Assembly (NCBI RefSeq): GCF_018336915.1
Contig: NZ_CP064924.1
Coordinates: 277,760-309,759, forward strand
Origin: Acaryochloris marina S15
GTDB lineage: Bacteria; Cyanobacteriota; Cyanobacteriia; Thermosynechococcales; Thermosynechococcaceae
Reading direction: 5' to 3'
Length of the DNA stretch: 32,000 nt
Position numbers and translations under genes: made by a program. The stretch's first letter is position 1. The number at the start of each line of letters is the position of its first letter. Shown here in pieces: positions 4,973 to 18,931 of this stretch. The notes under the pieces were generated by a model, which was given only the letters and a program-made list of their open reading frames with translations, was not told the DNA's origin and did not search any database.

Positions 4973-6073
4973 TTGGATACCTCACAAAAAACTAGTCTAA
5001 ACCCAACAAGATTACCCTTGCTGGTCTGTGGTAGCTTGCTCGTCGTCGCTCTACTGATAGGAGTTTGGAAATTACCCCAGCGTCAAGCATCCATGCTCAA
5101 ACAGCGAATCGAGAGGGAAGAGAATACTGCGATTTCCCGCGAGAAACTATTTCAGCTTGAAAATACGACTCGTGAGAATTACTTGAAAATCATTCAATCA
5201 TTTGGTGGACTTGGCTTTCTTTTGACAGGCTACTTTGCTTGGAGGAACTTGCAAATGGCTGAGAAAAATCGTGAACTTGCAGAGGGTAAGCAGGTAACAG
5301 AGCGCTTTAGCAAAGCTGTTGAACTTCTCTCCGATTCTAAGAAGCTTGAGGCCCGTATAGGTGGAATTTATATACTAGGCCGTATTGCTAATGATCATCC
5401 TAAAGATCAAATAACTGTGATGGAGGTACTAACAACCTTTATTCGAGAAAAATCGTTAGGAAGTGACCTTGAATGCCAATGTGATGAAGAGTATAGTAAC
5501 GCTGACATCCAATCTGCCCTTAATGTTATCGGCCGTCGTAACGTTGAAAATGATGGAGTTAGAGGATTGTTTCTTTATGGTTCAAATCTAAGTGGTGTAG
5601 ATCTTTGCGATACTAATTTCAGTAATACTGTCTTCAGTATGTGTGATCTCAGTAATGCCTATCTCCGTAAAACTAAGCTAATTAATACAAATTTTTCTGG
5701 TACTAAAATTAAAAAGACAAAGCTATGTGGAGCTTTTTTTAGTGGTGCTAACCTTAGCGGTGCTAACCTTAGCAGTACTGATCTAAGTGAATCTGATCTT
5801 ACTGATGCTGACCTAAGTGAATCCGATCTAAGTGAATCTGATCTTACTGATGCTGACCTAAGTGAATCCAATCTCACTGATGCTATTTTGAGTAGTGCCA
5901 ACCTGAAGAGAGCTAACCTAAAAAGAGCAGATCTTCGTGAGACTAAAGAAATAACTCCTAATCAGATCAAACAAGCAAGTAATTGGGAGCAAGCTCACTA
6001 CAGCGACGATTTCAAAATTCAACTAGGACTATCAACCACCTCTGAAGAGTCAGCAGAAAAGCCCGAAGAATAG
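4973..6073 (+). CDS. Membrane-anchored pentapeptide-repeat protein
   Basis: TTG start. N-terminal hydrophobic segments. The C-terminal half is long A(D/N)LxX pentapeptide runs (ANLSGANLSSTDLSESDLTDADLSESDL...). A 42-bp segment (5783-5824) recurs 45 bp downstream (5828-5869). Confidence 0.8.
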   Translation: MDTSQKTSLNPTRLPLLVCGSLLVVALLIGVWKLPQRQASMLKQRIEREENTAISREKLFQLENTTRENYLKIIQSFGGLGFLLTGYFAWRNLQMAEKNRELAEGKQVTERFSKAVELLSDSKKLEARIGGIYILGRIANDHPKDQITVMEVLTTFIREKSLGSDLECQCDEEYSNADIQSALNVIGRRNVENDGVRGLFLYGSNLSGVDLCDTNFSNTVFSMCDLSNAYLRKTKLINTNFSGTKIKKTKLCGAFFSGANLSGANLSSTDLSESDLTDADLSESDLSESDLTDADLSESNLTDAILSSANLKRANLKRADLRETKEITPNQIKQASNWEQAHYSDDFKIQLGLSTTSEESAEKPEE

Positions 6074-6711
6074 TCCAACAAAATCGATCGACCATAAAAA
6101 TCCCCTTTCTGCTCAATCTTAAATCCACCCAATAGCAGCCCAAGCCAAACCGCTACCAAAGGTAATCGAACTCCCCTCACCAGCTCCACAAACGACACCG
6201 CCCCCTTAGCCCCTTCCAAATACTCTCGGATCGCGCCCACCCATGCCCCCACATCTTCTACATGACTGACTTTCAGGGCAACTGCTTCCCCAGACTCCAG
6301 CTCATCGACAAACTCTAGAACCGCATCCTTACTAACTTCCCCCACAACAGACTCAACAGGAACCCCAGTGAACCCCTGGCGACTCTTCCGTGACTTCGGC
6401 TGACGACATAGATCCGAGACATCCAGAAACATCGTCTGCTGAATCATCCCAGCTAAGAAATCTTCATCCAACACTGGACCTTCTGAGTTGTATCTGTCTT
6501 CCCAACCCTGGATCATTAGCTCTGCCCGCTGCAAACAAACCTCAGCCATATCCTTGATCGCATCTCCAGCTACCCGGAGCTGTTCGTGGGGAGAACGGCC
6601 CTGTAGATGCTGCTCCAGTGAGGCACACATCAGGGAAATATCAGCTTGCTCTGGTTCGTCTAAAGCAGAGGCCAAAGCACTGGCAAAATCAAGCTCAAGC
6701 TGAGTGAACAT
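6019..6711 (-). CDS. Hypothetical acidic protein. The C-terminal segment loosely resembles a ScpA/kleisin-type winged-helix tail.
   Basis: 230-aa ORF overlapping the upstream gene by 17 nt (operon). C-terminus VSFVELVRGVRLPLVAVWLGLLLGGFKIEQKGDFYG. The 3' end overlaps the convergent pentapeptide gene by 55 bp. Confidence 0.5.
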   Translation of the reverse strand: MFTQLELDFASALASALDEPEQADISLMCASLEQHLQGRSPHEQLRVAGDAIKDMAEVCLQRAELMIQGWEDRYNSEGPVLDEDFLAGMIQQTMFLDVSDLCRQPKSRKSRQGFTGVPVESVVGEVSKDAVLEFVDELESGEAVALKVSHVEDVGAWVGAIREYLEGAKGAVSFVELVRGVRLPLVAVWLGLLLGGFKIEQKGDFYGRSILLDYSSGFSADSSEVVDSPS

Positions 6712-7222
6712 GGCGCTTATCCTTCAGTGGACATTCCGCAATTTCACACTCGGTCGGTTCCATGCGGATCGGGGGTTCAAATTCTGTGATGCCATACCGA
6801 TTGCCCAGCACCTTCAGCACCTCCTTCAAATACCGATTCACTTGGGTATTCGTCATCCCCATACAGTGGACGGCTTCAATTTCCGCTAGCTTCTCACTCC
6901 CCTGCCAGACAGCGATAGCCAGAGCATGGAGGTGAGCATCCTTGGGCTTTTCCTTGTAAAGATAGAGCAAAGCCACGGGTGGGGCCAGGACGGGAATCGA
7001 GAAGGTTTCAGTGGTTTTTGCTGGCGCTGTTTTTGCTTTCTGGTCAGCGTATTCTCCTCGGCGCTTGGCATTGCTTTCTTTGCGGTGGCGATAGTGATTT
7101 CGTTTGCGATCGCAGGCATTATCCTTCCAGCACCCATCCCCTTGCGGCCCATGAACCCGCTTTGCTTCCATCCGGGAATAGTCGATGCATTGGAGGCAGA
7201 TGGGGTTTGGAGGTAGTGGCAT
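6695..7222 (-). CDS. Hypothetical protein with a Cys-rich, basic N-terminus
   Basis: 175-aa ORF with CLQC...C...C, then the Arg/Lys-rich stretch RKRNHYRHRKESNAKRRGE and a globular C-terminal half. Several overlapping ORFs in other frames are shorter or featureless. Confidence 0.5.
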   Translation of the reverse strand: MPLPPNPICLQCIDYSRMEAKRVHGPQGDGCWKDNACDRKRNHYRHRKESNAKRRGEYADQKAKTAPAKTTETFSIPVLAPPVALLYLYKEKPKDAHLHALAIAVWQGSEKLAEIEAVHCMGMTNTQVNRYLKEVLKVLGNRYGITEFEPPIRMEPTECEIAECPLKDKRHVHSA

Positions 7223-7535: not shown

Positions 7536-10500
7536 ATGACGAGTCCGAGCCCAGAACAGCAAACCATTCTATTTCTTGCCAGCAACCCTGATGGATTGCG
7601 ACAAGTCGGACGAGAATTACGCGACATTAAAAACGGGTTACGCAGATCTGAGCATCGAGATCAGTTCACTCTATGTCCCTGCCTGGATGTACGTACTAAA
7701 GATATTCAACGGGCATTATTGGATGAAACGCCTCAGATAATTCACTTCGCTGGCAGTGGCAAAGGAGAAGCAGGACTCGTCTTTGAAGATCAAGCAGGCA
7801 ATCCCAAACTTGTCGCAAGTGCAGCCCTAGCAGGTCTATTTACTCTGTTTGCTGAGGACATCCACTGCGTCATTCTGAATGGGTGTTATACCCAGGTGCA
7901 AGCTCAAGCCATCGCTCAACATATTGATTATGTAGTAGGCATGCAGCAGGCCATCAGCCACGAAGCGGCCCTGGCCTTTGCCGTGGGTTTCTATGATGCC
8001 TTGGGTGCAGGCCGAGACATTGAATTTGCCTTTAAGTTGGGATGCAGTGCCATTCAAATAGAAGGCTTACCCGAATCTCTCACCCCGGTGTTGGTCCAAA
8101 AATCTAGCCTTCAATCCGCACCCCTCCACCCCTTACCCGAACAGCAGACTCATGAAAAACTCTGGAAAGTGCCAGAGTTACCCCCCCACTTTTTACCGCG
8201 TCCTCAGACCCTAAAAGCCCTAAGAGAGAAGGTCCTTACGGATCTAGCCCAGCCTGTCGTCATGACCGGGCAACGCGTCGGTGTTCAGGGTATGGGAGGC
8301 ATTGGCAAGTCGGTGTTGGCCACAGCCCTAGCTCGTGACCCTCAAGTTCAATCGGCATTCCCTGACGGTATTTATTGGCTAACCGTGGGGATAGAACCCA
8401 ACCTACTGGCTCAGCAAATCGCTCTAGCAGCAGCCCTCTGTGGTGAACGCCAGGTATTTGAAGATATCAATGAAGGGAAAAACCGCCTCCAAACCCTATG
8501 GCAAGGACGCCAAAGTCTATTGATTCTAGATGATGTCTGGTGCATCGCGGATGCTGACGTCTTCAATGTCCTGGGACATCAAAGTACCTTGGTAGTGACG
8601 ACCCGTGACTCAGAATTAATCACAGGATTAGGGGCCACTGACTTTTCCCTTTCGGTACTCCATGAGGATCAGGCGCTGGAGTTATTAGCCGCCTGGGTGG
8701 GCGTCCCCATCTCAGATCTACCCTCCCAAGCCCAGGAAGTAGCAAGAGAATGTGGCAACTTGCCCTTAGCCCTGGCCCAATGTGGTGCAATGGTGCGAGA
8801 TTTAACCCCTTGGCCCCATGTTCTCAGTGCCTTACAAGATTCAGATCTTGAATTTATCCAAAAACAGTTTAGTCATTATTCCTACCCCGATGTCTTCAAA
8901 GCCCTGCATGTCAGTGCAACGGTCTTAGCAGAAACCAACCCCATCGCTGCCGAACGCTATCAAGAACTGGCAGTGTTTCCAGCCGATGAATTGATTCCTG
9001 AAGCAGTCATTGTTCGCCTATGGCAATATACCGGAGTATTAAAGGAGCGAGATGCGGGCAAAATCCTAACCACCTTATCGAGTAAAGCCATGCTGCGGCT
9101 AGAGGGGGACTATCCCCAGCGGCAAGTCAGCCTCCATGACTTACAGCAGGATTATTTACAAGCCCAGCAAGCCGACCAGAAGGCATTGCATCAGCAACTT
9201 CTGGAGGCTTATCACCAGGGCTGTCCAGAGGGATGGCATTGTGGACCGAAGGACGGGTATTTCTTTGAGCATTTGGCCCATCACCTCCAGCAGGCAGAAC
9301 GCACCGATGAGTTACGGCAATTACTCTGGGACTATCGTTGGATTCAACGCAAATTGGGAGTCACTGATATCAATGCCCTGCTATTGGACTATGAAACCTT
9401 ACCCAAGGACCAAGACCTCAACAGTGTCCACAGTGGGTTACGGTTATCTAGCCATGTATTAAATCAGCATCCTGAGCAGCTTCCCAGTCAGCTCTTTGGG
9501 CGTTTGATGAGTCAAGATTCACCCCATGTGACCGCATTGACTCAATCTTTAGCTCAGGGACCGGGAGAATGCTGGATACGGTGTCTATTCCCCCATCTCA
9601 ACCAAGCGGGGGGAGCATTAGTGCGCACCCTCACCGGACATACTTCCACTGTCTATGGCGTGAGCATCAGCCCCGATGGCCAAACCGTAGTCTCCGCGTC
9701 TTGGGACCAGACCCTGAAGGTGTGGGACCTGGAGACGGGCCAGGAGCAGCGCACCCTCACCGGACATACTAGCCTTGTCAATGGCGTGAGCATCAGCCCC
9801 GATGGCCAAACCGTAGTCTCCGCGTCTTGGGACAAGACCCTGAAGGTATGGGACCTGGCGACGGGCCAGGAGCAGCGCACCCTCACCGGACATATTGCCT
9901 CTGTCAATGGCGTGAGCATCAGCCCCGATGGCCAAACCGTAATCTCCGCATCTAGTGACCATACCCTGAAGGTGTGGGATCTGGAGACGGGCCAGGAACA
10001 GCGCACCCTCACCGGACATACTGACTATGTCGAGGGCGTGAGCATCAGCCCCGATGGCCAAACCGTAGTCTCCGCGTCTAGGGACCAGACCCTGAAGGTG
10101 TGGGACCTGGAGACGGGCCAGGAGCAGCGCACCCTCACCGGACATACTGACCCTGTCTATGGCGTCAGCATCAGCTCCGATGGCCAAACCGTAGTCTCCG
10201 CGTCTGGTGACCAGACCCTGAAGGTGTGGGACCTGGCGACGGGCCAGGAGCAGCGCACCCTCACCGGACATACTGCCTCTGTCGAGGGCGTGAGCATCAG
10301 CTCCGATGGCCAAACCGTAGTCTCCGCGTCTGGTGACCATACCCTGAAGGTGTGGGACCTGGAGACGGGCCAGGAGCAGCGCACCCTCACCGGACATACT
10401 GCCTCTGTCGAGGGCGTGAGCATCAGCTCCGATGGCCAAACCGTGGTCTCCGCGTCTGATGACCATACCCTGAAGGTGTGGGACCTGGAGACGGGCCAGG

Positions 10501-11534
10501 AGCAGCGCACCCTCACCGGACATACTGCCTCTGTCGAGGGCGTGAGCATCAGCTCCGATGGCCAAACCGTAGTCTCCGCGTCTGGTGACCATACCCTGAA
10601 GGTGTGGGACCTGGAGACGGGCCAGGAGCAGCGCACCCTCACCGGACATACTTCCCTTGTCCATGGCGTGAGCATCAGCCCCGATGGCCAAACCGTAGTC
10701 TCCGCGTCTAAGGACCAGACCCTGAAGGTGTGGGACCTGGAGACGGGCCAGGAGCAGCGCACCCTCACCGGACATACTGCCTCTGTCACTGGCGTCAGCA
10801 TCAGCCCCGATGGCCAAACCGTCGTCTCCGCGTCTTGGGACAATACCCTGAAGGTGTGGGACCTGGAGACGGGCCAGGAGCAGCGCACCCTCACCGGACA
10901 TACTGCCTATGTCACTGGCGTGAGCATCAGCCCCGATGGCCAAACCCTTGTCTCCACGTCTTTGGACAAGACCCTGAAGGTGTGGGACCTGGAGACGGGC
11001 CAGGAGCAGCGCACCCTCACCGGGCATACTGACCCTGTCACTGGCGTGAGCATCAACCCCGATGGCCAAACCGTCGTCTCCGCGTCTTGGGACTGTACCC
11101 TGAAGGTGTGGGACCTGGAGACGGGCCAGGAGCAGCGCACCCTCACCGGACATACTTCCACTGTCACTGGCGTCAGCATCAGCCCCGATGGCCAAACCGT
11201 CGTCTCCGCGTCTTGGGACTGTACCCTGAAGGTGTGGGACCTGGAGACGGGCCAGGAGCAGCGCACCCTCACCGGACATACTGCCCCTGTCAATGGCGTG
11301 AGCATCAGCCCCGATGGCCAAACCCTTGTCTCCGCGTCTGATGACCATACCCTGAAGGCATGGGACCTGCTGACCGGCATGGAAGTGATGAGCTTCACGG
11401 GAGAAGGTGCATTTCAATGTTGTGAGATTGCCCTAGATGGTCGCACCGTCATTGCTGGAGATGCTGGGGGACAGCTTTACTTTCTGCGGCTAGAAGGCCC
11501 CAGCTTTTCAGACGACGGGGAGGTTATCTCATGA
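7536..11534 (+). CDS. NLR/STAND-like protein: caspase/CHAT-like N-domain (His to Ser variant) + NB-ARC (AP-ATPase) + Apaf-1-type helical domain + 14 WD40 blades and a degenerate 15th
   Basis: Walker A GMGGIGKS (8289-8312), Walker B LLILDDVW, VVTTRD, GNLPLALAQCG. WD40 units of form GHTxxVxGVSISPDGQTVVSASxDxTLKVWDLETGQEQRTLT. Confidence 0.9.
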   Translation: MTSPSPEQQTILFLASNPDGLRQVGRELRDIKNGLRRSEHRDQFTLCPCLDVRTKDIQRALLDETPQIIHFAGSGKGEAGLVFEDQAGNPKLVASAALAGLFTLFAEDIHCVILNGCYTQVQAQAIAQHIDYVVGMQQAISHEAALAFAVGFYDALGAGRDIEFAFKLGCSAIQIEGLPESLTPVLVQKSSLQSAPLHPLPEQQTHEKLWKVPELPPHFLPRPQTLKALREKVLTDLAQPVVMTGQRVGVQGMGGIGKSVLATALARDPQVQSAFPDGIYWLTVGIEPNLLAQQIALAAALCGERQVFEDINEGKNRLQTLWQGRQSLLILDDVWCIADADVFNVLGHQSTLVVTTRDSELITGLGATDFSLSVLHEDQALELLAAWVGVPISDLPSQAQEVARECGNLPLALAQCGAMVRDLTPWPHVLSALQDSDLEFIQKQFSHYSYPDVFKALHVSATVLAETNPIAAERYQELAVFPADELIPEAVIVRLWQYTGVLKERDAGKILTTLSSKAMLRLEGDYPQRQVSLHDLQQDYLQAQQADQKALHQQLLEAYHQGCPEGWHCGPKDGYFFEHLAHHLQQAERTDELRQLLWDYRWIQRKLGVTDINALLLDYETLPKDQDLNSVHSGLRLSSHVLNQHPEQLPSQLFGRLMSQDSPHVTALTQSLAQGPGECWIRCLFPHLNQAGGALVRTLTGHTSTVYGVSISPDGQTVVSASWDQTLKVWDLETGQEQRTLTGHTSLVNGVSISPDGQTVVSASWDKTLKVWDLATGQEQRTLTGHIASVNGVSISPDGQTVISASSDHTLKVWDLETGQEQRTLTGHTDYVEGVSISPDGQTVVSASRDQTLKVWDLETGQEQRTLTGHTDPVYGVSISSDGQTVVSASGDQTLKVWDLATGQEQRTLTGHTASVEGVSISSDGQTVVSASGDHTLKVWDLETGQEQRTLTGHTASVEGVSISSDGQTVVSASDDHTLKVWDLETGQEQRTLTGHTASVEGVSISSDGQTVVSASGDHTLKVWDLETGQEQRTLTGHTSLVHGVSISPDGQTVVSASKDQTLKVWDLETGQEQRTLTGHTASVTGVSISPDGQTVVSASWDNTLKVWDLETGQEQRTLTGHTAYVTGVSISPDGQTLVSTSLDKTLKVWDLETGQEQRTLTGHTDPVTGVSINPDGQTVVSASWDCTLKVWDLETGQEQRTLTGHTSTVTGVSISPDGQTVVSASWDCTLKVWDLETGQEQRTLTGHTAPVNGVSISPDGQTLVSASDDHTLKAWDLLTGMEVMSFTGEGAFQCCEIALDGRTVIAGDAGGQLYFLRLEGPSFSDDGEVIS
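7557..8102 (+). other. Shared N-terminal domain, copy 1 (candidate clan-CD peptidase-like or adaptor domain). The His position is Ser.
   Basis: IIHFAGSGKG with Ser codon agt at 7755-7757, where copy 2 has His. VILNGCYT with Cys codon 7884-7886. About 60% identical by eye to 11671..12228. Confidence 0.6.
9624..11387 (+). repeat. Fourteen tandem 126-bp coding repeats (WD40 blades) with near-identical nucleotide sequence
   Basis: cgcaccctcaccggacatact recurs at 9624, 9750, 9876 ... 11262, an exact 126-bp phase. Differences cluster in about 5 codons per unit. Confidence 0.95.
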
Positions 11535-11670
11535 CTTAAACCGTTCTAATATCCCTTCAATTCCTGCCTCAACGTTTGGGGTGTTCTCTCACAACCGAAG
11601 GCTATCGACGTCGCAATTCAATCATTGAGTGTTCCACTATCTTCTGCCCGAATTTATCCGCCCTACCCTC

Positions 11671-12768
11671 ATGACTGCCCAAACCATTCTCTTTCTCGCT
11701 GCGAATCCCAAAGATACTAAGACTCTTCGATTGGATCAGGAGTTAAGGGATATTGGTGAGGGTTTACAGCAGGCTCAACGTCGAGATGAGTTTAAGCTTG
11801 AACAGCGCCTGGCGGTTCGCCCCCATGATATTCAGCGGGCCATGCTAGATCTGAATCCCCAGATCGTTCATTTCTCAGGCCATGGGAATGGGGATGAGGG
11901 CTTGGCCTTTGAGGATGTCAGTGGTAATACCCAGTTGGTCAGTGGTGAGGCGATTGCTGACCTGTTTAGCCTGTTTGCCGATCAACTGCGCTGCGTAGTC
12001 CTCAATGGCTGCTATACCGAGGTGCAAGCAAAGGCCATCTCGGAACATATTCCCTATGTTATCGGTATGAAACGGGCGATTGGGGATAAAGCGGCGATCT
12101 CCTTTGCCGTGGGATTCTATGATGCCCTGGGCTCTGGTCGAGATGTGGAGTTTGCCTTTAAGTTGGGCTGTGCCGCTATCCGCATGGAAGGCATTGAAGA
12201 ACATCTCACCCCCGTTCTGATTAAAAAGCCCATTACTGAGGAAACTAAGGATCAGGATCAACCCAATGCTCAAACTCCTCCAACACCCGCGCCTTCTCCC
12301 ATGACTCCAGACGCCGATGGACCCTTAGAGGTCTTTATTTCCTATTCCCATAAAGACGATGATTTACGAGAAGAGTTAGACATCCATCTTTCCAATCTGA
12401 AACGACAGGGGAAAATTGCTGCTTGGCATGATCGGGCGATTGAAGCAGGGGAAGAATGGGAAGCTCAAATCAAAGGCCATCTGGAGTCCGCTCAAATCAT
12501 TCTGCTACTGGTCAGCCCACCCTTTATGGCCTCTGACTATTGCTACGACATTGAGATGCAACGAGCGATAGACCGCCATAACGAAGGCACAGCCCGAGTC
12601 ATCCCTATTATTCTGCGTCCCTGTGACTGGAAAGGGTCACCCTTCAGTAAGCTGAAGATACTCCCTAAAGATGCCAAGCCCGTGACGAAATGGGCTGATC
12701 GCGATGAGGCATTCTTGGATGTCGTCAAAGGAATACGGAGGGCGGTAGAGTCCCTGACAAAAAAGTAG
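11671..12768 (+). CDS. Caspase/CHAT-like N-domain + TIR domain protein. Probably the N-terminal part of a TIR-NB-ARC-TPR protein.
   Basis: ATG at 11671 gives MTAQTILFLAANP, parallel to gene A; the track's GTG at 11629 is less likely. HFSGHG (His 11881-11883) and VVLNGCYT (Cys 12010-12012). TIR at 12328-12756 with FISYSHKDD and SDYCYDIEMQ (Glu 12553-12555). It ends at TAG 12766-12768, directly after A_AAA_AAG. Confidence 0.85.
   Translation: MTAQTILFLAANPKDTKTLRLDQELRDIGEGLQQAQRRDEFKLEQRLAVRPHDIQRAMLDLNPQIVHFSGHGNGDEGLAFEDVSGNTQLVSGEAIADLFSLFADQLRCVVLNGCYTEVQAKAISEHIPYVIGMKRAIGDKAAISFAVGFYDALGSGRDVEFAFKLGCAAIRMEGIEEHLTPVLIKKPITEETKDQDQPNAQTPPTPAPSPMTPDADGPLEVFISYSHKDDDLREELDIHLSNLKRQGKIAAWHDRAIEAGEEWEAQIKGHLESAQIILLLVSPPFMASDYCYDIEMQRAIDRHNEGTARVIPIILRPCDWKGSPFSKLKILPKDAKPVTKWADRDEAFLDVVKGIRRAVESLTKK
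12759..12765 (+). other. A_AAA_AAG heptamer in the correct register for -1 slippage, immediately followed by the TIR-ORF stop. A -1 shift enters the NB-ARC-TPR frame.
   Basis: Zero-frame codons are ACA AAA AAG TAG. The -1 frame reads AAA AAA GTA GAC CAC... and stays open to 15437. It encodes the conserved pre-P-loop segment PHNLPRSGVVEFVGREQTLQDLHQLL upstream of the only candidate start (TTG 12918). Confidence 0.6.
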
Positions 12769-12917
12769 ACCACTCTTCGTCAGGACTCAGTCCACCAACG
12801 GAGAGTCATCAGGGCCAGGGACCAGAAGCCTCGTCATCTTCTCAGGCAAGTCCCCCTCATAACCTCCCTCGCAGCGGTGTCGTTGAATTTGTCGGTCGTG
12901 AACAAACGCTGCAGGAC

Positions 12918-15437
12918 TTGCACCAGCTCCTCCAAAAGAACAATCCAGTAGCCCTTACTGCATTAGCAGGCATGGGTGGGATCGGAAAGACTGAACTTGC
13001 CCTGCAATATGCCATCTCCCAGCTCGATCAGGGTCAGTACCCTGGAGGACTTTGCTGGCTGCGAGTGAAAGGCCAGGCTCTAGCTGCCCAAATTATCGAA
13101 TTTGCCCGGACCAAGTTGGCACTGGCCCTTCCGGATGGACTCAATGAAGATCAACAGGTGAGTTATATCTGGGGGCAATGGCCCACCGGAAAGGTGCTGA
13201 TTATTTTTGATGATGTAAAGGACCTTGAGACCATCGAACCGTACTTACCGCCGTCAGACCCACGGTATAAAGTACTGATTACAACCCGACAGGATTTAGG
13301 TCTATCCGATCATTCCCTTTCCATTAAAGAACTGAGCGATACCAGTGCCTTATCCCTGCTGAGAACCCTAGTTGGAGCAGACCGAATTGATGCTCAGCTC
13401 GACGATGCTCAAGCCTTATGTGGATGGGTGGGTAAATTGCCCTTAGGACTAGAGTTAGTGGGACGGTATCTAGCCAGAAAGCCAGACTGGTCCCTCCAAA
13501 AGCTGATCAAGCGACTTGAATCCAAGCGATTACAAGCCAAAGCCCTGACGACTCCAGCATCAGGAATGACCGCACAGTTTGGGGTCGCTGCTGCACTGGA
13601 ATTAAGCTGGGTAGAGCTGAATGAGGCAGAGCAGGAACTGGCTTGCTTTTTGGGGATGTTTGCGGTTGCTCCTATTCCTTGGACTTTGGTTGAAGGATGT
13701 CTATCCGAACAGGATAAGGATGACTTAGAAGACATCAGAGATGAAGGTTTGAAAGATAGGAACCTACTCAAACGAATAGAAGAGAGTACCTACCAACTCC
13801 ATCAAATTGTTCAGGAGTTCTTTCGGATTAAGTTGAATGAGGATTCCGAACAGGGGAAATCCCTCAAAGCCGCTTATTGCAGAGGAATGGTTGCAGTTGC
13901 TCAGGGTATTAATCAGAATCCAACGATTGATGTGATTGCAGGGATGAGTGCCAGCATTCCCCATCTAGAGGAACTGATCCGACAGTGGATTGACCACCTC
14001 GGTGATGATGAATTGATGTGGCCCTATGTCGGTATTGGTCGATTTTATGAAGGGCAAGGGAACTATGCATTGGCTTTACCTTGGTATCAAAAATGCCTAG
14101 AACAGACTCAACAAAGATTGGGCAATGAACACACCGATGTCGCAACTAGCCTCAATAACCTGGCAGGACTCTACAAAAACCAAGGACGATATGAGGAAGC
14201 AGAACCCCTCTATACACAAGCCCTACAGATGAGACAGAAGCCATTGGGCAATGAACACCCCGATGTCGCAACTAGCCTCAATAACCTGGCATTACTCTAC
14301 GACAGCCAAGGACGGTATGAGGAGGCAGAACCCCTCTATACACAAGCCCTACAGATGACACAGAAGCTCTTGGGCAATGAACACCCCGATGTCGCTCTTA
14401 GCCTCAATAACCTGGCAGGACTCTACGACAACCAAGGACGGTATGAGGAGGCAGAACCCCTCTATACACAAGCCCTACAGATGAAAAAGAAGCTCTTGGG
14501 CAATGAACACCCCTCTGTCGCAAGTAGCCTCAATAACCTGGCAGGACTCTACAAAAACCAAGGACGGTATGAGGAGGCAGAACCCCTCTATACACAAGCC
14601 CTACAGATGACACAGAAGCTCTTGGGCAATGAACACCCCTCTGTCGCAAGTAGCCTCAATAACCTGGCAGCACTCTACGAGAACCAAGGACGGTATGAGG
14701 AGGCAGAACCCCTCTATACACAAGCCCTACAGATGAGACAGAAGCTCTTGGGCAATGAACACCCCTATGTCGCGACTAGCCTCAATAACCTGGCAGGACT
14801 CTACAAAAACCAAGGACGGTATGAGGAGGCAGAACCCCTCTATACACAAGCCCTACAGATGACACAGAAGCTCTTGGGCAATGAACACCCCTCTGTCGCA
14901 AGTAGCCTCAATAACCTGGCAGCACTCTACGACAACCAAGGACGGTATGAGGAGGCAGAACCCCTCTATACACAAGCCCTACAGATGAGACAGAAGCTAT
15001 TGGGCAATGAACACCCCGATGTCGCAACTAGCCTCAATAACCTGGCATTACTCTACGACAACCAAGGACGGTATGAGGAGGCAGAACCCCTCTATACACA
15101 AGCCCTGCAGATGAAAAAGAAGCTCTTGGGCAATGAACACCCCTCTGTCGCAAGTAGCCTCAATAACCTGGCAGGACTCTACAAAAACCAAGGACGGTAT
15201 GAGGAGGCAGAACCCCTCTATACACAAGCCCTACAGATGAGACAGAAGCTCTTGGGCAATGAACACCCCTCTGTCGCGACTAGCCTCAATAACCTGGCAT
15301 TACTCTACAAAAACCAAGGACGGTATAAGGAGGCCAAATCTAATTTAAAGCAAGCACTAAAGATAGTAGAGGTCGTCTTGGGTCCAGAGCATCCTTCTAC
15401 TCGGACCATGCGAAACAACTTAGAGTCCATCCCCTAG
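12918..15437 (+). CDS. NB-ARC (AP-ATPase) + 42-aa TPR (kinesin-light-chain type) repeat protein. The true N-terminus is almost certainly upstream, fused to the TIR ORF via a -1 frame change.
   Basis: Walker A GMGGIGKT (12969-12992), LIIFDDV, ITTRQ, GKLPLGLELVG. Ten near-identical units of form LGNEHPxVAxSLNNLAxLYxxQGRYEEAEPLYTQALQMxxKL. The frame is open from 12708 with no ATG or GTG before 12918. Confidence 0.85.
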   Translation: MHQLLQKNNPVALTALAGMGGIGKTELALQYAISQLDQGQYPGGLCWLRVKGQALAAQIIEFARTKLALALPDGLNEDQQVSYIWGQWPTGKVLIIFDDVKDLETIEPYLPPSDPRYKVLITTRQDLGLSDHSLSIKELSDTSALSLLRTLVGADRIDAQLDDAQALCGWVGKLPLGLELVGRYLARKPDWSLQKLIKRLESKRLQAKALTTPASGMTAQFGVAAALELSWVELNEAEQELACFLGMFAVAPIPWTLVEGCLSEQDKDDLEDIRDEGLKDRNLLKRIEESTYQLHQIVQEFFRIKLNEDSEQGKSLKAAYCRGMVAVAQGINQNPTIDVIAGMSASIPHLEELIRQWIDHLGDDELMWPYVGIGRFYEGQGNYALALPWYQKCLEQTQQRLGNEHTDVATSLNNLAGLYKNQGRYEEAEPLYTQALQMRQKPLGNEHPDVATSLNNLALLYDSQGRYEEAEPLYTQALQMTQKLLGNEHPDVALSLNNLAGLYDNQGRYEEAEPLYTQALQMKKKLLGNEHPSVASSLNNLAGLYKNQGRYEEAEPLYTQALQMTQKLLGNEHPSVASSLNNLAALYENQGRYEEAEPLYTQALQMRQKLLGNEHPYVATSLNNLAGLYKNQGRYEEAEPLYTQALQMTQKLLGNEHPSVASSLNNLAALYDNQGRYEEAEPLYTQALQMRQKLLGNEHPDVATSLNNLALLYDNQGRYEEAEPLYTQALQMKKKLLGNEHPSVASSLNNLAGLYKNQGRYEEAEPLYTQALQMRQKLLGNEHPSVATSLNNLALLYKNQGRYKEAKSNLKQALKIVEVVLGPEHPSTRTMRNNLESIP
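14118..15377 (+). repeat. Ten tandem 126-bp coding repeats (TPR units) with near-identical nucleotide sequence
   Basis: ttgggcaatgaacac recurs at 14118, 14244 ... with an exact 126-bp phase. The last unit is degenerate, and variation is confined to a few codons. Confidence 0.9.
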
Positions 15438-15680: not shown

Positions 15681-16103
15681 TTAATCGGTGTAGTGTTCCT
15701 TCAGCCAGTTCACCAGATCAGAAGATTCAGTAAAGTCGAGCAATGCCTCACCAAGAGTTTCGAGTTGATCGAGGGAGAGGGATTGAATCTGGGATTGTAA
15801 TTCAGGGGAAACGTCACCAATGCGGCGGGTGAGTTGGCGGAGGATGAGGGATTGGGCTTCTCTAAGAGCGCCAGACTGTTCACCTTCCTGTCGTCCTTCC
15901 TGGCGACCTTCGTCCAAGGCTTCCTGGTAAACTTTCGTTTGCTTGAGTTCGCTTAAGCCCAACATACTCTCTATCTCTTCCCGGCTCAGTTGTGGAAATT
16001 TATAGACCACAATCGTTTCAATCAACTCCATTATCGCCGCTATCTTAGGATTTGTCTGTCTTTGCGTCTGAGCCCTTGATAGCATTGCTTTTGCTTGGGT
16101 CAC
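15681..16103 (-). CDS. DUF4351-like protein (C-terminal module of Rpn/YhgA-type PD-(D/E)XK putative transposases). No nuclease domain is present.
   Basis: KVYQEALDEGRQEGRQEGEQSGALREAQSLILRQLTRRIGDVSPELQSQIQSLSLDQLETLGEALLDF matches the characteristic cyanobacterial DUF4351 tail pattern recalled from memory. Confidence 0.55.
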   Translation of the reverse strand: MTQAKAMLSRAQTQRQTNPKIAAIMELIETIVVYKFPQLSREEIESMLGLSELKQTKVYQEALDEGRQEGRQEGEQSGALREAQSLILRQLTRRIGDVSPELQSQIQSLSLDQLETLGEALLDFTESSDLVNWLKEHYTD

Positions 16104-16195: not shown

Positions 16196-18931
16196 ATGTG
16201 GCCTGACTCACTTCGACATTGGAGTAAGCGAGCACGGCGGTCAATTGATCCTCGTCAAAGCCTCAAAGCTCGCTTACTGTTGATCACGTTTGGGATGGTT
16301 CTACTGCTCTCGACCGTTTTGAGTCTAGTGGTGGGCAACATCAGCACGGAACAACTAGAAGCGGTCACTAATCAATCTTTAGAAGATCTGGCCTTTCAAG
16401 TGGCCGACAAGCTTGATCGCGGTATGTTTGAGCGCTATCGGGATTTGCAAATCATTGCCAGCCTTGACGTGCTGCGTCAACCGAGTGTCTCAATAACCAC
16501 TGAGCGGAATCTGTTGGAACAGCTTCAGAAGTCCTACCCTAACTATTCTTGGCTGGGGGTAGCAGACCCTGCAGGTATAGTGAAAGCCAGCACTGGAGGA
16601 CTGCTGGAGGGAGAAAGTGTTGCCCAGCGTCCGTGGTTTCAGGCAGGACGGAAGCAGCCCTTTGTTGGTAGCATGCATGAGGCATTGATGCTAGAAAAAC
16701 GGCCCTCTAATCCCACTGATGAATCATCCCGATTTGTGGACTTGTCAACCCCTCTATTTGATGATCAGGGACAACTTCAGGGTGTTCTCGCTGTCCATTT
16801 AAGCTGGTCGTGGGCAAAGGAGACTACCCATCGGCTCATCAATCCAGAAGCCAAACACAATCATGCTGAAATCTTGGTTCTCTGCCAAGACGGGCATGTA
16901 TTGCTGGGACCAGCAGGTGTTCAGGGTGAAACATTACCGATCACCATCCTTAAAGCCTCCAATACGAATCGGACAGGATATTTTATTGAGTCTTGGCCCA
17001 GTCAGGGGGAGTTTGTGACTGGCTGGGCCAAGACTAAGGGCTATCTCAGCTATCCTGGACTGGGCTGGATTGTGCTGGCCCGTCGATCGGTGACCCAAGC
17101 CTTCGCCCCAGCTCGGGTGCTACAGGCAAAGGTTTTGGGTTGGGGACTGGGTATCGGAACGCTGTTTGCATTGCTCAGTTGGTTGATTGCACGCCGCATC
17201 TCGTTCGTAACGATTAAACTCACCACTGCTGCTGATCGCATTCGGCAAGGCAGCCCTGATGAAACCTTACCGACCGTTGAGGGACGAGATGAGTTGGCCC
17301 AGCTCTCGCGTTCCCTCCATCACATGGTCAATATGCTGCAAATCCAACGGCAAAACCTACTGCTCACCAATCAACAGCTCCAAGATGAGCTACAACTCCG
17401 TGAGCAGGCCGAACATACAATTGGGGAGCAGGCTGCATTGCTGGACATTGCCACCGATGCAATTTTTGTACGGGATTTAGATAATCGCATTTTGTATTGG
17501 AATCAGGGGGCACAGCGCACCTATGGATGGTCAGCAGCAGAAGCCTGCGGCCAAAATGCAATCACCTTCCTCAATTTAACAAGTTCCCCCGAGCTAGACA
17601 CCGCCGTACAAACTGTTCTTGAACAGGGCGAATGGCAAGGGGAGCTAGAAAAAGTGACCCAATCGAAACAAACAATCGTCGTTGATAGTCGCTGGTCGTT
17701 AGCCTGTAATGCAGAGGGTCAACCTGAATTCATCCTCACCGTTGATACGGACATTACTGAGCAAAAGCAGCTCGAGGTCCAGTTTCTGCGCGCCCAGCGA
17801 CTAGAGAGCTTAGGCACCCTCGCCAGTGGCATCGCTCACGATCTCAACAATATTTTCACCCCTATCATTGGTTCAGCGGGTCTCCTACCCATCACCCTAG
17901 ACCCAGCAGACAGCAAGAGCCGCCGCTTGGTGCGGATGCTCAACGATAGCGCTCAACGCGGCAGCGAATTAGTCAAGCAAATTCTAGCTTTCGCACGGGG
18001 GGCTGAGGGGGAATTCATTACGCTCCAGGTCGGTCACCTATTGGCCGAGATTCAACAGATCATCAGAAGCACGTTCCCAAAACACATTGAGCTGCAGGCC
18101 AATATTCCCACCCAGTCTCTGCCCACGGTGACCGCCGATGCAACCCAAGTCCATCAGATATTGATGAACCTTTGCGTGAATGCCCGTGATGCCATGCCTA
18201 ACGGTGGCATTCTAAGTCTATCGGCCAAAGCAATAACAGTGGATGAACACTTTGCGGAGATACATATTGATGCAAAGACTGGGAAGTATGTCGCGATCAC
18301 TGTTGCTGATACGGGTATGGGCATACCACTCGAGGTACAAGAGCGCATTTATGATCCCTTTTTCACGACCAAAGAGGTTGGCCAGGGTACAGGATTAGGG
18401 CTATCGACGGTGAGGGGCATTATCAAAGGTCATGGCGGATTTTTAGACCTTTATTCCGAGGTGGGTCGAGGAACAACCTTTACAGTGTTTATCCCCGCTG
18501 AACTCGATCATGAGATGGAGATACCTCAATATCCTGACTTACAAGAGGGGCAGGGGCAGTTAATTTTAGTGGTGGATGACGAAGCGCTGATCCTGCAAAT
18601 GACCAAGAGCACGTTAGAACTATTCAACTATCAAGTGGTCACGGCTACGAATGGGAGAGATGCGATCGCTCAGTACAAGCAATATCACCCTGACCTTGTA
18701 CTCATGGATATGATGATGCCGGAGCTAGGAGGGCAAGAAGCGATCTCAGCACTGAGAGACATCAATCCGCACCTCAAGATTGTTGCTACTAGCGGACTGA
18801 TTACAGAGCAATTTTCTACTATCAGTGTTGATGCCTTTTTGCCTAAGCCTTATACTCTGCAAGAGTTACTTCAGACACTTGGGCAATTTCAGGAAAAGAA
18901 CTCACATACTTTAGGCCATGAGATGCAATAG
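16196..18931 (+). CDS. Hybrid sensor histidine kinase: extracytoplasmic Cache-like domain, TM, HAMP, PAS, HisKA, HATPase_c, C-terminal receiver
   Basis: Two hydrophobic segments flank a ~280-aa sensor domain. HAMP-like ELAQLSRSLHHMVNML; H-box GIAHDLNNIF; N, G1 and G2 boxes (NLCVNARDAM, DTGMGI, GTGLGLS). Receiver: LILVVDDE...DLVLMDMMMP...KIVATSG...LPKPY. Confidence 0.9.
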   Translation: MWPDSLRHWSKRARRSIDPRQSLKARLLLITFGMVLLLSTVLSLVVGNISTEQLEAVTNQSLEDLAFQVADKLDRGMFERYRDLQIIASLDVLRQPSVSITTERNLLEQLQKSYPNYSWLGVADPAGIVKASTGGLLEGESVAQRPWFQAGRKQPFVGSMHEALMLEKRPSNPTDESSRFVDLSTPLFDDQGQLQGVLAVHLSWSWAKETTHRLINPEAKHNHAEILVLCQDGHVLLGPAGVQGETLPITILKASNTNRTGYFIESWPSQGEFVTGWAKTKGYLSYPGLGWIVLARRSVTQAFAPARVLQAKVLGWGLGIGTLFALLSWLIARRISFVTIKLTTAADRIRQGSPDETLPTVEGRDELAQLSRSLHHMVNMLQIQRQNLLLTNQQLQDELQLREQAEHTIGEQAALLDIATDAIFVRDLDNRILYWNQGAQRTYGWSAAEACGQNAITFLNLTSSPELDTAVQTVLEQGEWQGELEKVTQSKQTIVVDSRWSLACNAEGQPEFILTVDTDITEQKQLEVQFLRAQRLESLGTLASGIAHDLNNIFTPIIGSAGLLPITLDPADSKSRRLVRMLNDSAQRGSELVKQILAFARGAEGEFITLQVGHLLAEIQQIIRSTFPKHIELQANIPTQSLPTVTADATQVHQILMNLCVNARDAMPNGGILSLSAKAITVDEHFAEIHIDAKTGKYVAITVADTGMGIPLEVQERIYDPFFTTKEVGQGTGLGLSTVRGIIKGHGGFLDLYSEVGRGTTFTVFIPAELDHEMEIPQYPDLQEGQGQLILVVDDEALILQMTKSTLELFNYQVVTATNGRDAIAQYKQYHPDLVLMDMMMPELGGQEAISALRDINPHLKIVATSGLITEQFSTISVDAFLPKPYTLQELLQTLGQFQEKNSHTLGHEMQ

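Follow-up and report, generated by a model that had tools for sequence, protein, structure and literature searches.

We analysed a 32,000-nt stretch of the Acaryochloris marina S15 genome (GCF_018336915.1, NZ_CP064924.1, positions 277,760-309,759 of the forward strand; hereafter the window, numbered from its first letter), which carries a CHAT-TIR gene and an NB-ARC-TPR open reading frame (ORF) that are likely to be joined by programmed -1 ribosomal frameshifting. The upstream frame, ORF1 (11671-12768, + strand), encodes a protein of 365 aa ending in SLTKK. Its CHAT domain is short and caspase-like, with the dyad motifs HFSGHG and NGCY. Pfam recognizes CHAT (partial match, E = 1.9e-9) and TIR_2 (E = 2.8e-16) in this protein, and the PADLOC models identify a ThsB-type TIR (ThsB1 hidden Markov model, E = 6e-63) and a CHAT protein (chat model, E = 6e-27). 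The ATG at 11671 is also the start assigned by the Prokaryotic Genome Annotation Pipeline (PGAP) in four homologous loci. Exact-protein look-ups for ORF1 and for the protein P0006 returned no record.

ORF1 closes with the codons CTG (12754-56), ACA (12757-59), AAA (12760-62), AAG (12763-65) and TAG (12766-68). A run of six A (12759-12764) is followed by G at 12765, so that the heptamer A_AAA_AAG (12759-12765, + strand) stands in X_XXY_YYZ register relative to the TIR frame; the zero-frame stop TAG (12766-12768, + strand), which closes the short product, abuts the heptamer on its 3' side. The -1 frame is open from 12708 to 15437 and, counted from GTA at 12765, comprises 890 codons (12765-15437, + strand), encoding in turn a Ser/Pro-rich linker, an FVGRE motif (12888-12902), a Walker A motif (GMGGIGKT, 12969-12992), an NB-ARC domain (Pfam, E = 5e-15) and a TPR array (TPR_12, E = 6e-164). 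Its translation reads ...KKVDHSSSGLSPPTES...PPHNLPRSGVVEFVGREQTLQDLHQLL ahead of Walker A. The first ATG, GTG or TTG of this frame past the heptamer is the TTG at 12918-12920 (+ strand), which annotation pipelines take as the start of a separate 'tetratricopeptide repeat protein' and which lies downstream of a conserved PRSGVVEFVGR segment. Joined to ORF1, the -1 ORF would yield a conceptual trans-frame CHAT-TIR-NB-ARC-TPR protein of 1255 aa (365 + 890). An initial annotation of the window had proposed the end of the TIR ORF, the register of the heptamer, a -1 frame open from 12708 with neither ATG nor GTG before 12918, and a fused product of this length, and direct reading of the sequence bears out each of these. 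On the + strand between ORF1 and the -1 ORF we found no promoter-like or terminator-like site, which is weak evidence.

We take the FVGRE of the -1 ORF to be the hhGRExE motif that precedes the P-loop in signal transduction ATPases with numerous domains (STAND NTPases). Leipe et al. reportedly used a motif of the hhGRExE type in 2004 to define the NB-ARC (AP-ATPase) clade of these proteins. The -1 ORF combines an NB-ARC domain, a motif of this type, a Walker A motif and C-terminal repeats, and so belongs with the STAND NB-ARC clade that resembles receptors of the NLR type (nucleotide-binding, with leucine-rich repeats). As predicted from the two reading frames, the long product is NLR-like in layout, with N-terminal effectors, an NB-ARC switch and a C-terminal TPR sensor.

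Conservation of the slippery heptamer and stop codon

Relatives were collected by searching ORF1 against one genome per species and against metagenome contigs, and the end of the TIR match was located at each locus (loci are given below as L numbers). We found NNA AAA AAG followed immediately by TAG or TAA in 19 of 19 junctions, from Acaryochloris, from other cyanobacterial families (metagenome-assembled genomes) and from metagenome contigs. A 20th junction (L165) reads ACA AAA AAA TAG, that is, A_AAA_AAA, and TAG or TAA stands at exactly the same position in all 20, a recurrence far beyond chance. The junctions fall into 14-15 clusters (<85% nucleotide identity), and between clusters the 300 nt ahead of the junction are 58-82% identical. 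In 15 cluster representatives, third-position conservation is 100%, 100% and 93% for the final three sense codons, as against 40-87% for the 17 codons before them. The third codon from the end is ACA, CCA, TCA, GCA or CTA; it thus encodes five different amino acids (T, P, S, A or L) while its wobble base is always A, a base with a background frequency of 0.19 at third positions. The two lysine codons are AAA and then AAG, and G at position 7 of the heptamer is kept in 14 of 15 clusters. The tract is A6 in each of the 19 A_AAA_AAG junctions, with no variation among strains. By both the third-position and the codon -3 analyses, the nucleotide conservation of the heptamer exceeds what the protein requires.

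The -1 ORFs that follow this junction are of three types. NB-ARC(-TPR) modules are found in Acaryochloris, in Stenomitos (L010) and in an Acaryochloridaceae locus (L026); an AAA_16/nSTAND1-like P-loop ATPase with the motif SPFITG...FFGR..ELKRLFNLL...GQRRSGKTSLL occupies the same place in L017, L019, L024, L009, L085-L090 and L092; and L020 and L091 carry TPR only (Pfam). One cassette therefore joins CHAT-TIR to three unrelated -1-frame modules. The heptamer has not been retained by relatives that lack a -1 ORF: L008 terminates with the non-slippery CCC AAA AG TAG, in L011 and L013 the frame continues into coiled-coil tails, and the Nostoc copies also lack it at the end of the frame. Two relatives in which the fusion is in frame lack it as well (L166, GCA AAA AAT ACC; L168, ACA AAA CCT).

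The best protein matches are in Acaryochloris, and a search of plasmid DNA returned four loci that span the whole junction at 89-93% identity: pREB7 and pREB8 (L003 and L004) of A. marina MBIC11017, from a complete-genome record, and pMB04 (L002) and pMB06 (L001) of Acaryochloris sp. 'Moss Beach'. Each of the four carries an annotated 1098-nt 'TIR domain-containing protein', and RefSeq lists the halves as two genes; in pREB7 and pREB8 the PGAP 'tetratricopeptide repeat protein' begins at the equivalent of TTG 12918. A 285-nt alignment of the Acaryochloris copies across the junction contains no indel, and CAAAAAAGTAGAC is invariant, while pMB04 has replaced the Thr codon ACA by CCA (Pro). Despite DNA divergence of 9-11%, the -1 ORF is intact to its conserved C-terminus in the window, pREB7 and pREB8 (2.2-2.7 kb), and L007 has an open -1 frame of 2.4 kb. 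Both Moss Beach copies have a -1 ORF that is broken further downstream (L001:7105-7668 in pMB06; L002:7096-8916 in pMB04).

Several further junctions were noted beside these. In Nostoc spp. (L012:6063-6090, L014, L015 and L016) the CHAT-TIR frame stops sooner, at a TAA that is closely followed by a relic, tcaaaaaagtagat, without a -1 ORF; it looks as if the NTPase module was lost and a frameshift junction once present there then decayed. At L165 (Logan contig SRR25991874_47923, 1621-1679) the A_AAA_AAA heptamer has a 9-bp hairpin 4 nt downstream, and the linker of its -1 ORF (..NSSPPTENLDDQG..) resembles the Acaryochloris linker. A plasmid scaffold of Leptolyngbya sp. Cla-17 (L023:5433-5489) carries an in-frame A7 variant, GTA AAA AAA GTA ACC, followed by a perfect 10-bp hairpin (AAUCCACGGG...CCCGUGGAUU); here the zero frame continues for 75 aa and the -1 frame stops after ~15 codons. 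If active, this site would be the inverse, dnaX-like arrangement in which frameshifting makes the short product, although the A7 could be an assembly error because the scaffold contains Ns. A second type of junction occurs at the ends of TIR ORFs in Planctomycetota and metagenome contigs (L021:~6190-6209, L022:~6175-6194, L101 and L144), where GCA, AGA or CGA is followed by AAC CCT (CGN) and a stop, giving an in-phase A_AAC_CCU; the -1 ORFs at these loci are of 173, 184 and >688 aa, and that of L144 has an NB-ARC-like P-loop and also an internal ATG. The A_AAC_CCU junctions could be chance, overlapping genes or another recoding site.

Coding signature of the -1 frame and the downstream hairpin

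We calculated ratios of non-synonymous to synonymous substitution (dN/dS) by the Nei-Gojobori method for the intact Acaryochloris copies. Over NB-ARC codons 37-340 (304 codons) dN/dS in the -1 frame is 0.19-0.21, compared with 0.85-2.75 in the other frames, and the value for ORF1 is 0.16-0.20. The 36 start-less linker codons directly after the stop have dN/dS of 0.20-0.63 in the -1 frame, with the other frames mostly at about 1 or more. The constraint downstream of the junction is thus not relaxed (dN/dS ~0.2) as it would be in a frameshifted pseudogene. In six loci (the window, L001, L002, L004, L007 and L026) the FVGR motif has no ATG, GTG or TTG upstream of it, and the TTG at 12918 itself reads TTA in pMB06 (L001) and is missing from L026. 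The Acaryochloris copies share an unchanged SPPHNLPRSGVV.FVGR segment ahead of the annotated TTG, in keeping with the earlier proposal that the residues ahead of the TTG are a conserved lead-in to the P-loop. On these sequence comparisons the TTG at 12918 is probably not the real N-terminus.

Homologues that encode the same architecture in a single ORF give a further comparison. P0002, P0003 and P0004 (1125-1132 aa) match the trans-frame query at 47-50% identity over 99-100% of its length in one local alignment, with ...ELTSKRTQES...ENLPRSGVVEFVGR at the junction. The ATPase type, too, has fused versions (P0029 and P0099). Among 5.8 billion clustered proteins there is no near-identical fused protein, and the best full-length matches are ~50% identical. 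Standalone CHAT-TIR and standalone NB-ARC-TPR proteins are both common.

Downstream of the heptamer, where the initial annotation had seen no convincing stem-loop within 10 nt, we identified a predicted stimulatory RNA hairpin of 9 bp (12772-12806, + strand). Its arms, 12772-12780 (ACUCUUCGU) and 12798-12806 (ACGGAGAGU), enclose a 17-nt loop with a small inner hairpin, and the spacer to the heptamer is 6 nt (UAGACC). The predicted stability of -16.2 kcal/mol (z = -4.0) was equalled by none of 200 dinucleotide shuffles. The helix recurs at the same offsets past the stop codon in 17 of 19 separate minimum free energy (MFE) folds, in some of them bulged; an uninterrupted stem of 9-12 bp begins 4-7 nt past the heptamer in nine of 14 cluster representatives, the rest being bulged or shorter. 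Single-sequence z-scores from 60-nt segments and mononucleotide shuffles were weak (-0.2 to -3.2), and were replaced by a positional control, by covariation counts and by the dinucleotide-shuffle test.

Covariation was assessed in a near gap-free MAFFT alignment of 19 sequences (A2), with columns 15-24 fixed as the partners of columns 42-51. We found that 81% of cells in the helix columns are paired, compared with 34-51% when the partner is slid by 1-3 columns, and that 39 cells carry double changes, compared with 3-9 in the slid controls. Compensatory changes occur in seven of ten pairs (e.g. A-U/G-C, C-G/U-A and C-G/A-U/U-A), the observed covariation score was reached by none of 500 shuffles, and RNAalifold independently recovers the same helix. 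When stem length and 42-nt MFE were compared with 600 random positions per locus, the Fisher-combined p-values for 14 clusters were 3e-8 and 2e-10, respectively, which overstate independence because the junctions are homologous. At the equivalent site the hairpin is missing from the in-frame L166 and L168 and from the non-slippery L008 (MFE percentiles 0.79, 0.78 and 0.34), and is present in the heptamer-bearing L165 and L023 (0.048 and 0.004). A covariance model built from A2 finds matches confined to these junctions in 504 kb, with one match in the window; in Rfam, neither a known frameshift element nor any other family matched 11000-14000.

A GGAGG lies at 12737-12741, 17 nt upstream of the heptamer, as previously reported. 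It occurs only in Acaryochloris and L010; GGAG is conserved neither in position nor in presence, and we rejected an upstream Shine-Dalgarno-like stimulator as a feature of the family.

Probable programmed frameshifting and rival explanations

Taken together, the in-register A_AAA_AAG with its abutting stop, the stable and covarying hairpin past a 6-nt spacer, and the co-linear -1 ORF that lacks a start codon make up a canonical bacterial -1 cassette. We therefore consider it likely that dnaX/IS3-type programmed -1 ribosomal frameshifting would produce both a 365-aa CHAT-TIR protein and a 1255-aa CHAT-TIR-NB-ARC-TPR protein. ORF1 and the NB-ARC-TPR ORF would then be one gene. Most ribosomes would read ...ACA AAA AAG and terminate at the TAG at 12766, giving the 365-aa protein, and a fraction, held by the hairpin 6 nt downstream and perhaps also by the adjacent stop, would slip one base back on A_AAA_AAG and continue through AAA AAA GTA GAC... 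to give the 1255-aa protein. The gene would deliver two products because termination and slippage both occur under this model. A peptide across the shift junction of the long product would span ...SLTKKVDHSSSGLSPPTE, and the architecture of the long product would be that of the single-ORF homologues in other cyanobacteria. In E. coli a single mnm5s2U-type tRNA-Lys makes AAG shifty. A stop directly after a slippery run was reportedly described by Weiss et al. in 1987 as an enhancer ('shifty stops'), and the strict adjacency of the stop at these junctions, by analogy, fits such enhancement.

The RNA signal would set the ratio of an effector-only protein to its tethered form, in which a STAND ATPase switch and a TPR sensor are attached to that effector. 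As a guess, the short product could form a pool of free effector that is recruited by the oligomerised full-length receptor or restrains it; the free form could amplify signalling via homotypic assembly, or could restrain signalling. The comparisons show the cassette and its conservation, the covarying helix, the coding signature and the co-linearity with fused proteins, whereas the ribosomal nature of the slippage, its efficiency and this role of the short product are what we infer.

Of three options raised in the initial annotation, recoding is the one that gained support, from nucleotide conservation of the heptamer, the covarying hairpin, the coding signature of the linker and the co-linear single-ORF homologues. 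The other two, an assembly error in a fused gene and a recent inactivating deletion, are refuted because A6G and the stop are found in 19 of 19 junctions, among them those of the MBIC11017 complete-genome plasmids, and because the downstream frame is under purifying selection (dN/dS ~0.2) behind a conserved junction. The orthologue comparison suggested there has likewise been made: it returned the A6G-plus-stop junctions, fused relatives without the heptamer (L166 and L168) and, in NB-ARC-type loci, no conserved separate start.

The explanation closest to the existing annotation is that of two separate genes, in which CHAT-TIR ends at the TAG, NB-ARC-TPR initiates at TTG 12918 or at a non-canonical linker codon, and the junction is a 3' end plus the 5' untranslated region of the next gene, with a hairpin that regulates initiation or mRNA stability. 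The PGAP annotation in pREB7 and pREB8 agrees with it, as do the Pfam NB-ARC match, which begins just 6 residues before the Leu encoded by the TTG, the in-frame GTG or TTG in the linker of some ATPase-type loci, and the abundance of standalone proteins of both kinds. However, L001 has TTA in place of the TTG and L026 lacks the codon, the six NB-ARC-type loci offer no other start upstream of FVGR, the 36 post-stop codons bear the coding signature of the -1 frame, and PRSGVV.FVGR is invariant upstream of the TTG. Two genes would also leave unexplained the constant wobble A before AAA AAG, the fixed AAA AAG lysine codons, and the joint loss of heptamer and hairpin in the in-frame relatives. We regard this explanation as unlikely. 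Termination-reinitiation was dropped, as no AUG, GUG or UUG overlaps or lies near the stop in the -1 frame.

Slippage might instead be transcriptional, with RNA polymerase adding one A to the A6 run so that a subset of A7 mRNAs encodes the fusion. A-runs are known slippage sites (PMC5009743, PMC3711429), and A7 variants occur in the family (L165 and L023), but established bacterial cases have ~8-11 A or T (PMC3711429), against which A6 is short; moreover, G at position 7 is kept in 14 of 15 clusters and the run has not been lengthened, and the hairpin, on the 3' side of the run, is spaced as ribosomal stimulators typically are (5-9 nt), all of which leaves polymerase slippage improbable. An old, inherited pseudogene or split, in which a fused ancestor lost one A, CHAT-TIR stayed functional and the remainder is decaying or is kept only as RNA, would account for the truncated downstream ORFs at five of 19 loci and for the site relic in Nostoc copies without a -1 ORF. 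It is very improbable in view of dN/dS of ~0.2 over 304 NB-ARC codons and the long intact -1 ORFs in the window, pREB7 and pREB8; nor would heptamer, stop and covarying hairpin be expected to persist at 58-82% identity before three modules. There is hardly any likelihood left for a sequencing or assembly error that hides a true A7 allele, or for a phase-variable homopolymer that switches between A6 and A7: homopolymers are error-prone, and the draft scaffold of L023, with its Ns, has an in-frame A7, yet A6G is found in all 19 junctions from independent assemblies that include complete-genome records, no near-identical fused protein exists among those searched (the best full-length matches being ~50% identical), and tract length is constant among strains.

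Several points nevertheless weigh against programmed frameshifting. The -1 ORF is truncated in five of the 19 junction loci (L001, L002, L009, L086 and L090); these truncations could be pseudogenisation, assembly errors or additional recoding. The long product is dispensable in some lineages, because downstream ORFs are truncated at these five loci and the Nostoc copies keep only the relic of the site. In the ATPase-type subgroup some -1 ORFs have an in-frame GTG or TTG upstream of FFGR, and at such loci separate initiation may occur. A conserved upstream Shine-Dalgarno-like stimulator is absent, no conserved GGAG being found in other lineages among the junctions compared, and the combined p-values for the hairpin carry the non-independence stated above. 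The support is entirely comparative, and the trans-frame product is a predicted one.

Neighbouring genes and known systems

Upstream of ORF1 lies gene A (7536-11534, + strand), a single ORF with CHAT-like, NB-ARC and WD40 domains (14 repeats; Pfam), which is a paralogous NLR-like gene outside the frameshift cassette and whose N-terminal domain is 53% identical to that of ORF1. Gene A adjoins the frameshift gene in four of the five other Acaryochloris copies, is missing beside L007 and is split into two annotated genes in pMB06. No gene A-like CHAT-NB-ARC gene was found in the available flanks of non-Acaryochloris loci, several of which have short upstream flanks. Gene A might recruit the short product, as the initial annotation suggested, but given its absence at L007 and from these flanks it was rejected as an obligatory partner. 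Conservation upstream of the cassette extends to two divergently oriented hypothetical ORFs without a Pfam match, at 6695-7222 (- strand, 175 aa) and 6019-6711 (- strand, 230 aa). All Acaryochloris copies have the 175-aa ORF, at 86-95% identity, and the 230-aa ORF is 72-98% identical where present, L003 keeping only a 52-residue fragment; in L007, which lacks gene A, both stand directly upstream of the CHAT-TIR/NB-ARC gene. On the other side, the NLR-like gene is separated from a Cache-HAMP-PAS hybrid histidine kinase (16196-18931) by a small ORF at 15681-16103 (- strand), which matches DUF4351 (E = 5e-24) and the C-terminal part of DUF2887. No tRNA gene was detected by ARAGORN in the window.

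The TPR array of the -1 ORF, its predicted sensor (14118-15334, + strand), consists of 9.7 tandem units of 126 nt at 93% identity (Tandem Repeats Finder). The WD40 array of gene A (9623-11369, 13.9 units) is likewise built of 126-nt tandem units, and the units in both arrays are 93% identical to each other. Repeat number varies between paralogues (proteins of 653-842 aa). Highly conserved internal repeats are a pattern known from fungal NLR sensors.

The proposed junction resembles that of E. coli dnaX (tau/gamma) in its identical A_AAA_AAG, in a 3' stem-loop ~6 nt downstream, in its occurrence in a cellular, non-mobile gene (PMC5009743, PMC3711429) and in a fixed ratio of two products with a common N-terminus. 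In dnaX, however, frameshifting makes the short product and a Shine-Dalgarno-like element contributes, whereas here it would make the long product, the stop abuts the heptamer and no such element is conserved. OrfA/OrfAB of the IS3 family (IS911, IS150 and IS3) combine A_AAA_AAG with a downstream hairpin or pseudoknot (PMC5009743, PMC4066793) and follow the same logic, in that the zero frame ends soon after the site, the short protein so made being regulatory or DNA-binding, and a -1 shift adds the catalytic part to it; in viral gag-pol, too, termination gives the short product and slippage the fusion. Unlike the IS3 elements, the present locus encodes no transposase, its products being a protease/TIR effector and a STAND NTPase receptor, and one upstream module is joined to several unrelated downstream modules.

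Single-ORF CHAT-TIR-NB-ARC-TPR proteins (e.g. P0003, from Leptolyngbya sp. BL-A-14) have the same domain order, ~50% identity, FVGRE and Walker A; in these and other NLR-like or STAND proteins (PMC7159879; Avs, PMC13581612) the ORF is continuous, whereas here the halves lie in different frames. No Avs model of PADLOC matches the -1 NTPase, for which there is a generic TPR match only, and the ATPase-type module has no PADLOC match of any kind; by these models the gene is not assigned to a characterised Avs or other named defence system. It is not a Thoeris system either, as the adjacent genes are the CHAT-NB-ARC-WD40 gene and the histidine kinase and no ThsA-like gene, with SIR2 or Macro plus SLOG, is among them, and the constant A6 of all 19 A_AAA_AAG junctions sets it apart from phase-variable contingency loci. 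Close homologues of ORF1 (61-73% identity; P0024-P0026, P0040 and P0044) are free CHAT-TIR proteins with EAD1, an effector-associated domain (EAD). Kaur et al. proposed that EAD adaptors recruit effectors to a core NTPase in trans (PMC7159879). ORF1, in contrast, lacks an EAD; the frameshifted fraction would be linked to the NTPase covalently, and the short fraction, if at all, by homotypic contact. Plant TIR-NBS-LRR (TNL) genes such as tobacco N, Arabidopsis RPS4 and Medicago RCT1 are alternatively spliced into full-length and truncated TIR isoforms, both needed for full resistance (PMC4100160). One NLR gene thus gives a full receptor and truncated TIR isoforms there as it would here, but by splicing and not by recoding, and the likeness is an analogy only.

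Few cellular, non-mobile bacterial genes with -1 frameshifting have been described: dnaX, csoS2, Mg-chelatase-like genes and copA (PMC5009743, PMC3711429). A full-text literature search for frameshifting together with TIR, NLR/STAND, CHAT, cyanobacteria or anti-phage defence found no relevant earlier description; a 2016 recoding review, the GeneTack survey, a conflict-systems paper and a 2026 STAND survey mention no such case, and the GeneTack supplements contain no Acaryochloris, TIR, NB-ARC or TPR entry. The mechanism is canonical and already known; what appears new to recoding in the searchable literature is this family of genes and the cassette's modular use.

More tentatively, and with somewhat less than even confidence, heptamer, stop and hairpin may form a portable recoding junction of bacterial NLR-like immunity that fixes the stoichiometry of free and tethered effector, both products being needed. 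The short product would then join the activated oligomer to amplify its signal or hold the oligomer in check, and would be, by analogy, a prokaryotic counterpart of the truncated TIR isoforms of plant TNLs.

If programmed frameshifting is confirmed, the pairs of 'TIR domain protein' and N-terminally truncated 'tetratricopeptide repeat protein' annotated in Acaryochloris and its relatives would be single recoded NLR-like genes, and censuses of domain architecture in bacterial STAND proteins would count them wrongly. They would also offer a natural, genetically tunable system for the role of an effector-only isoform in an NLR, a question still open for plant TNLs, in that a mutated heptamer would leave a short-only allele and fused frames a long-only one. 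The recoding signal would, unusually for a frameshift site, be a conserved joint at which modules are exchanged.

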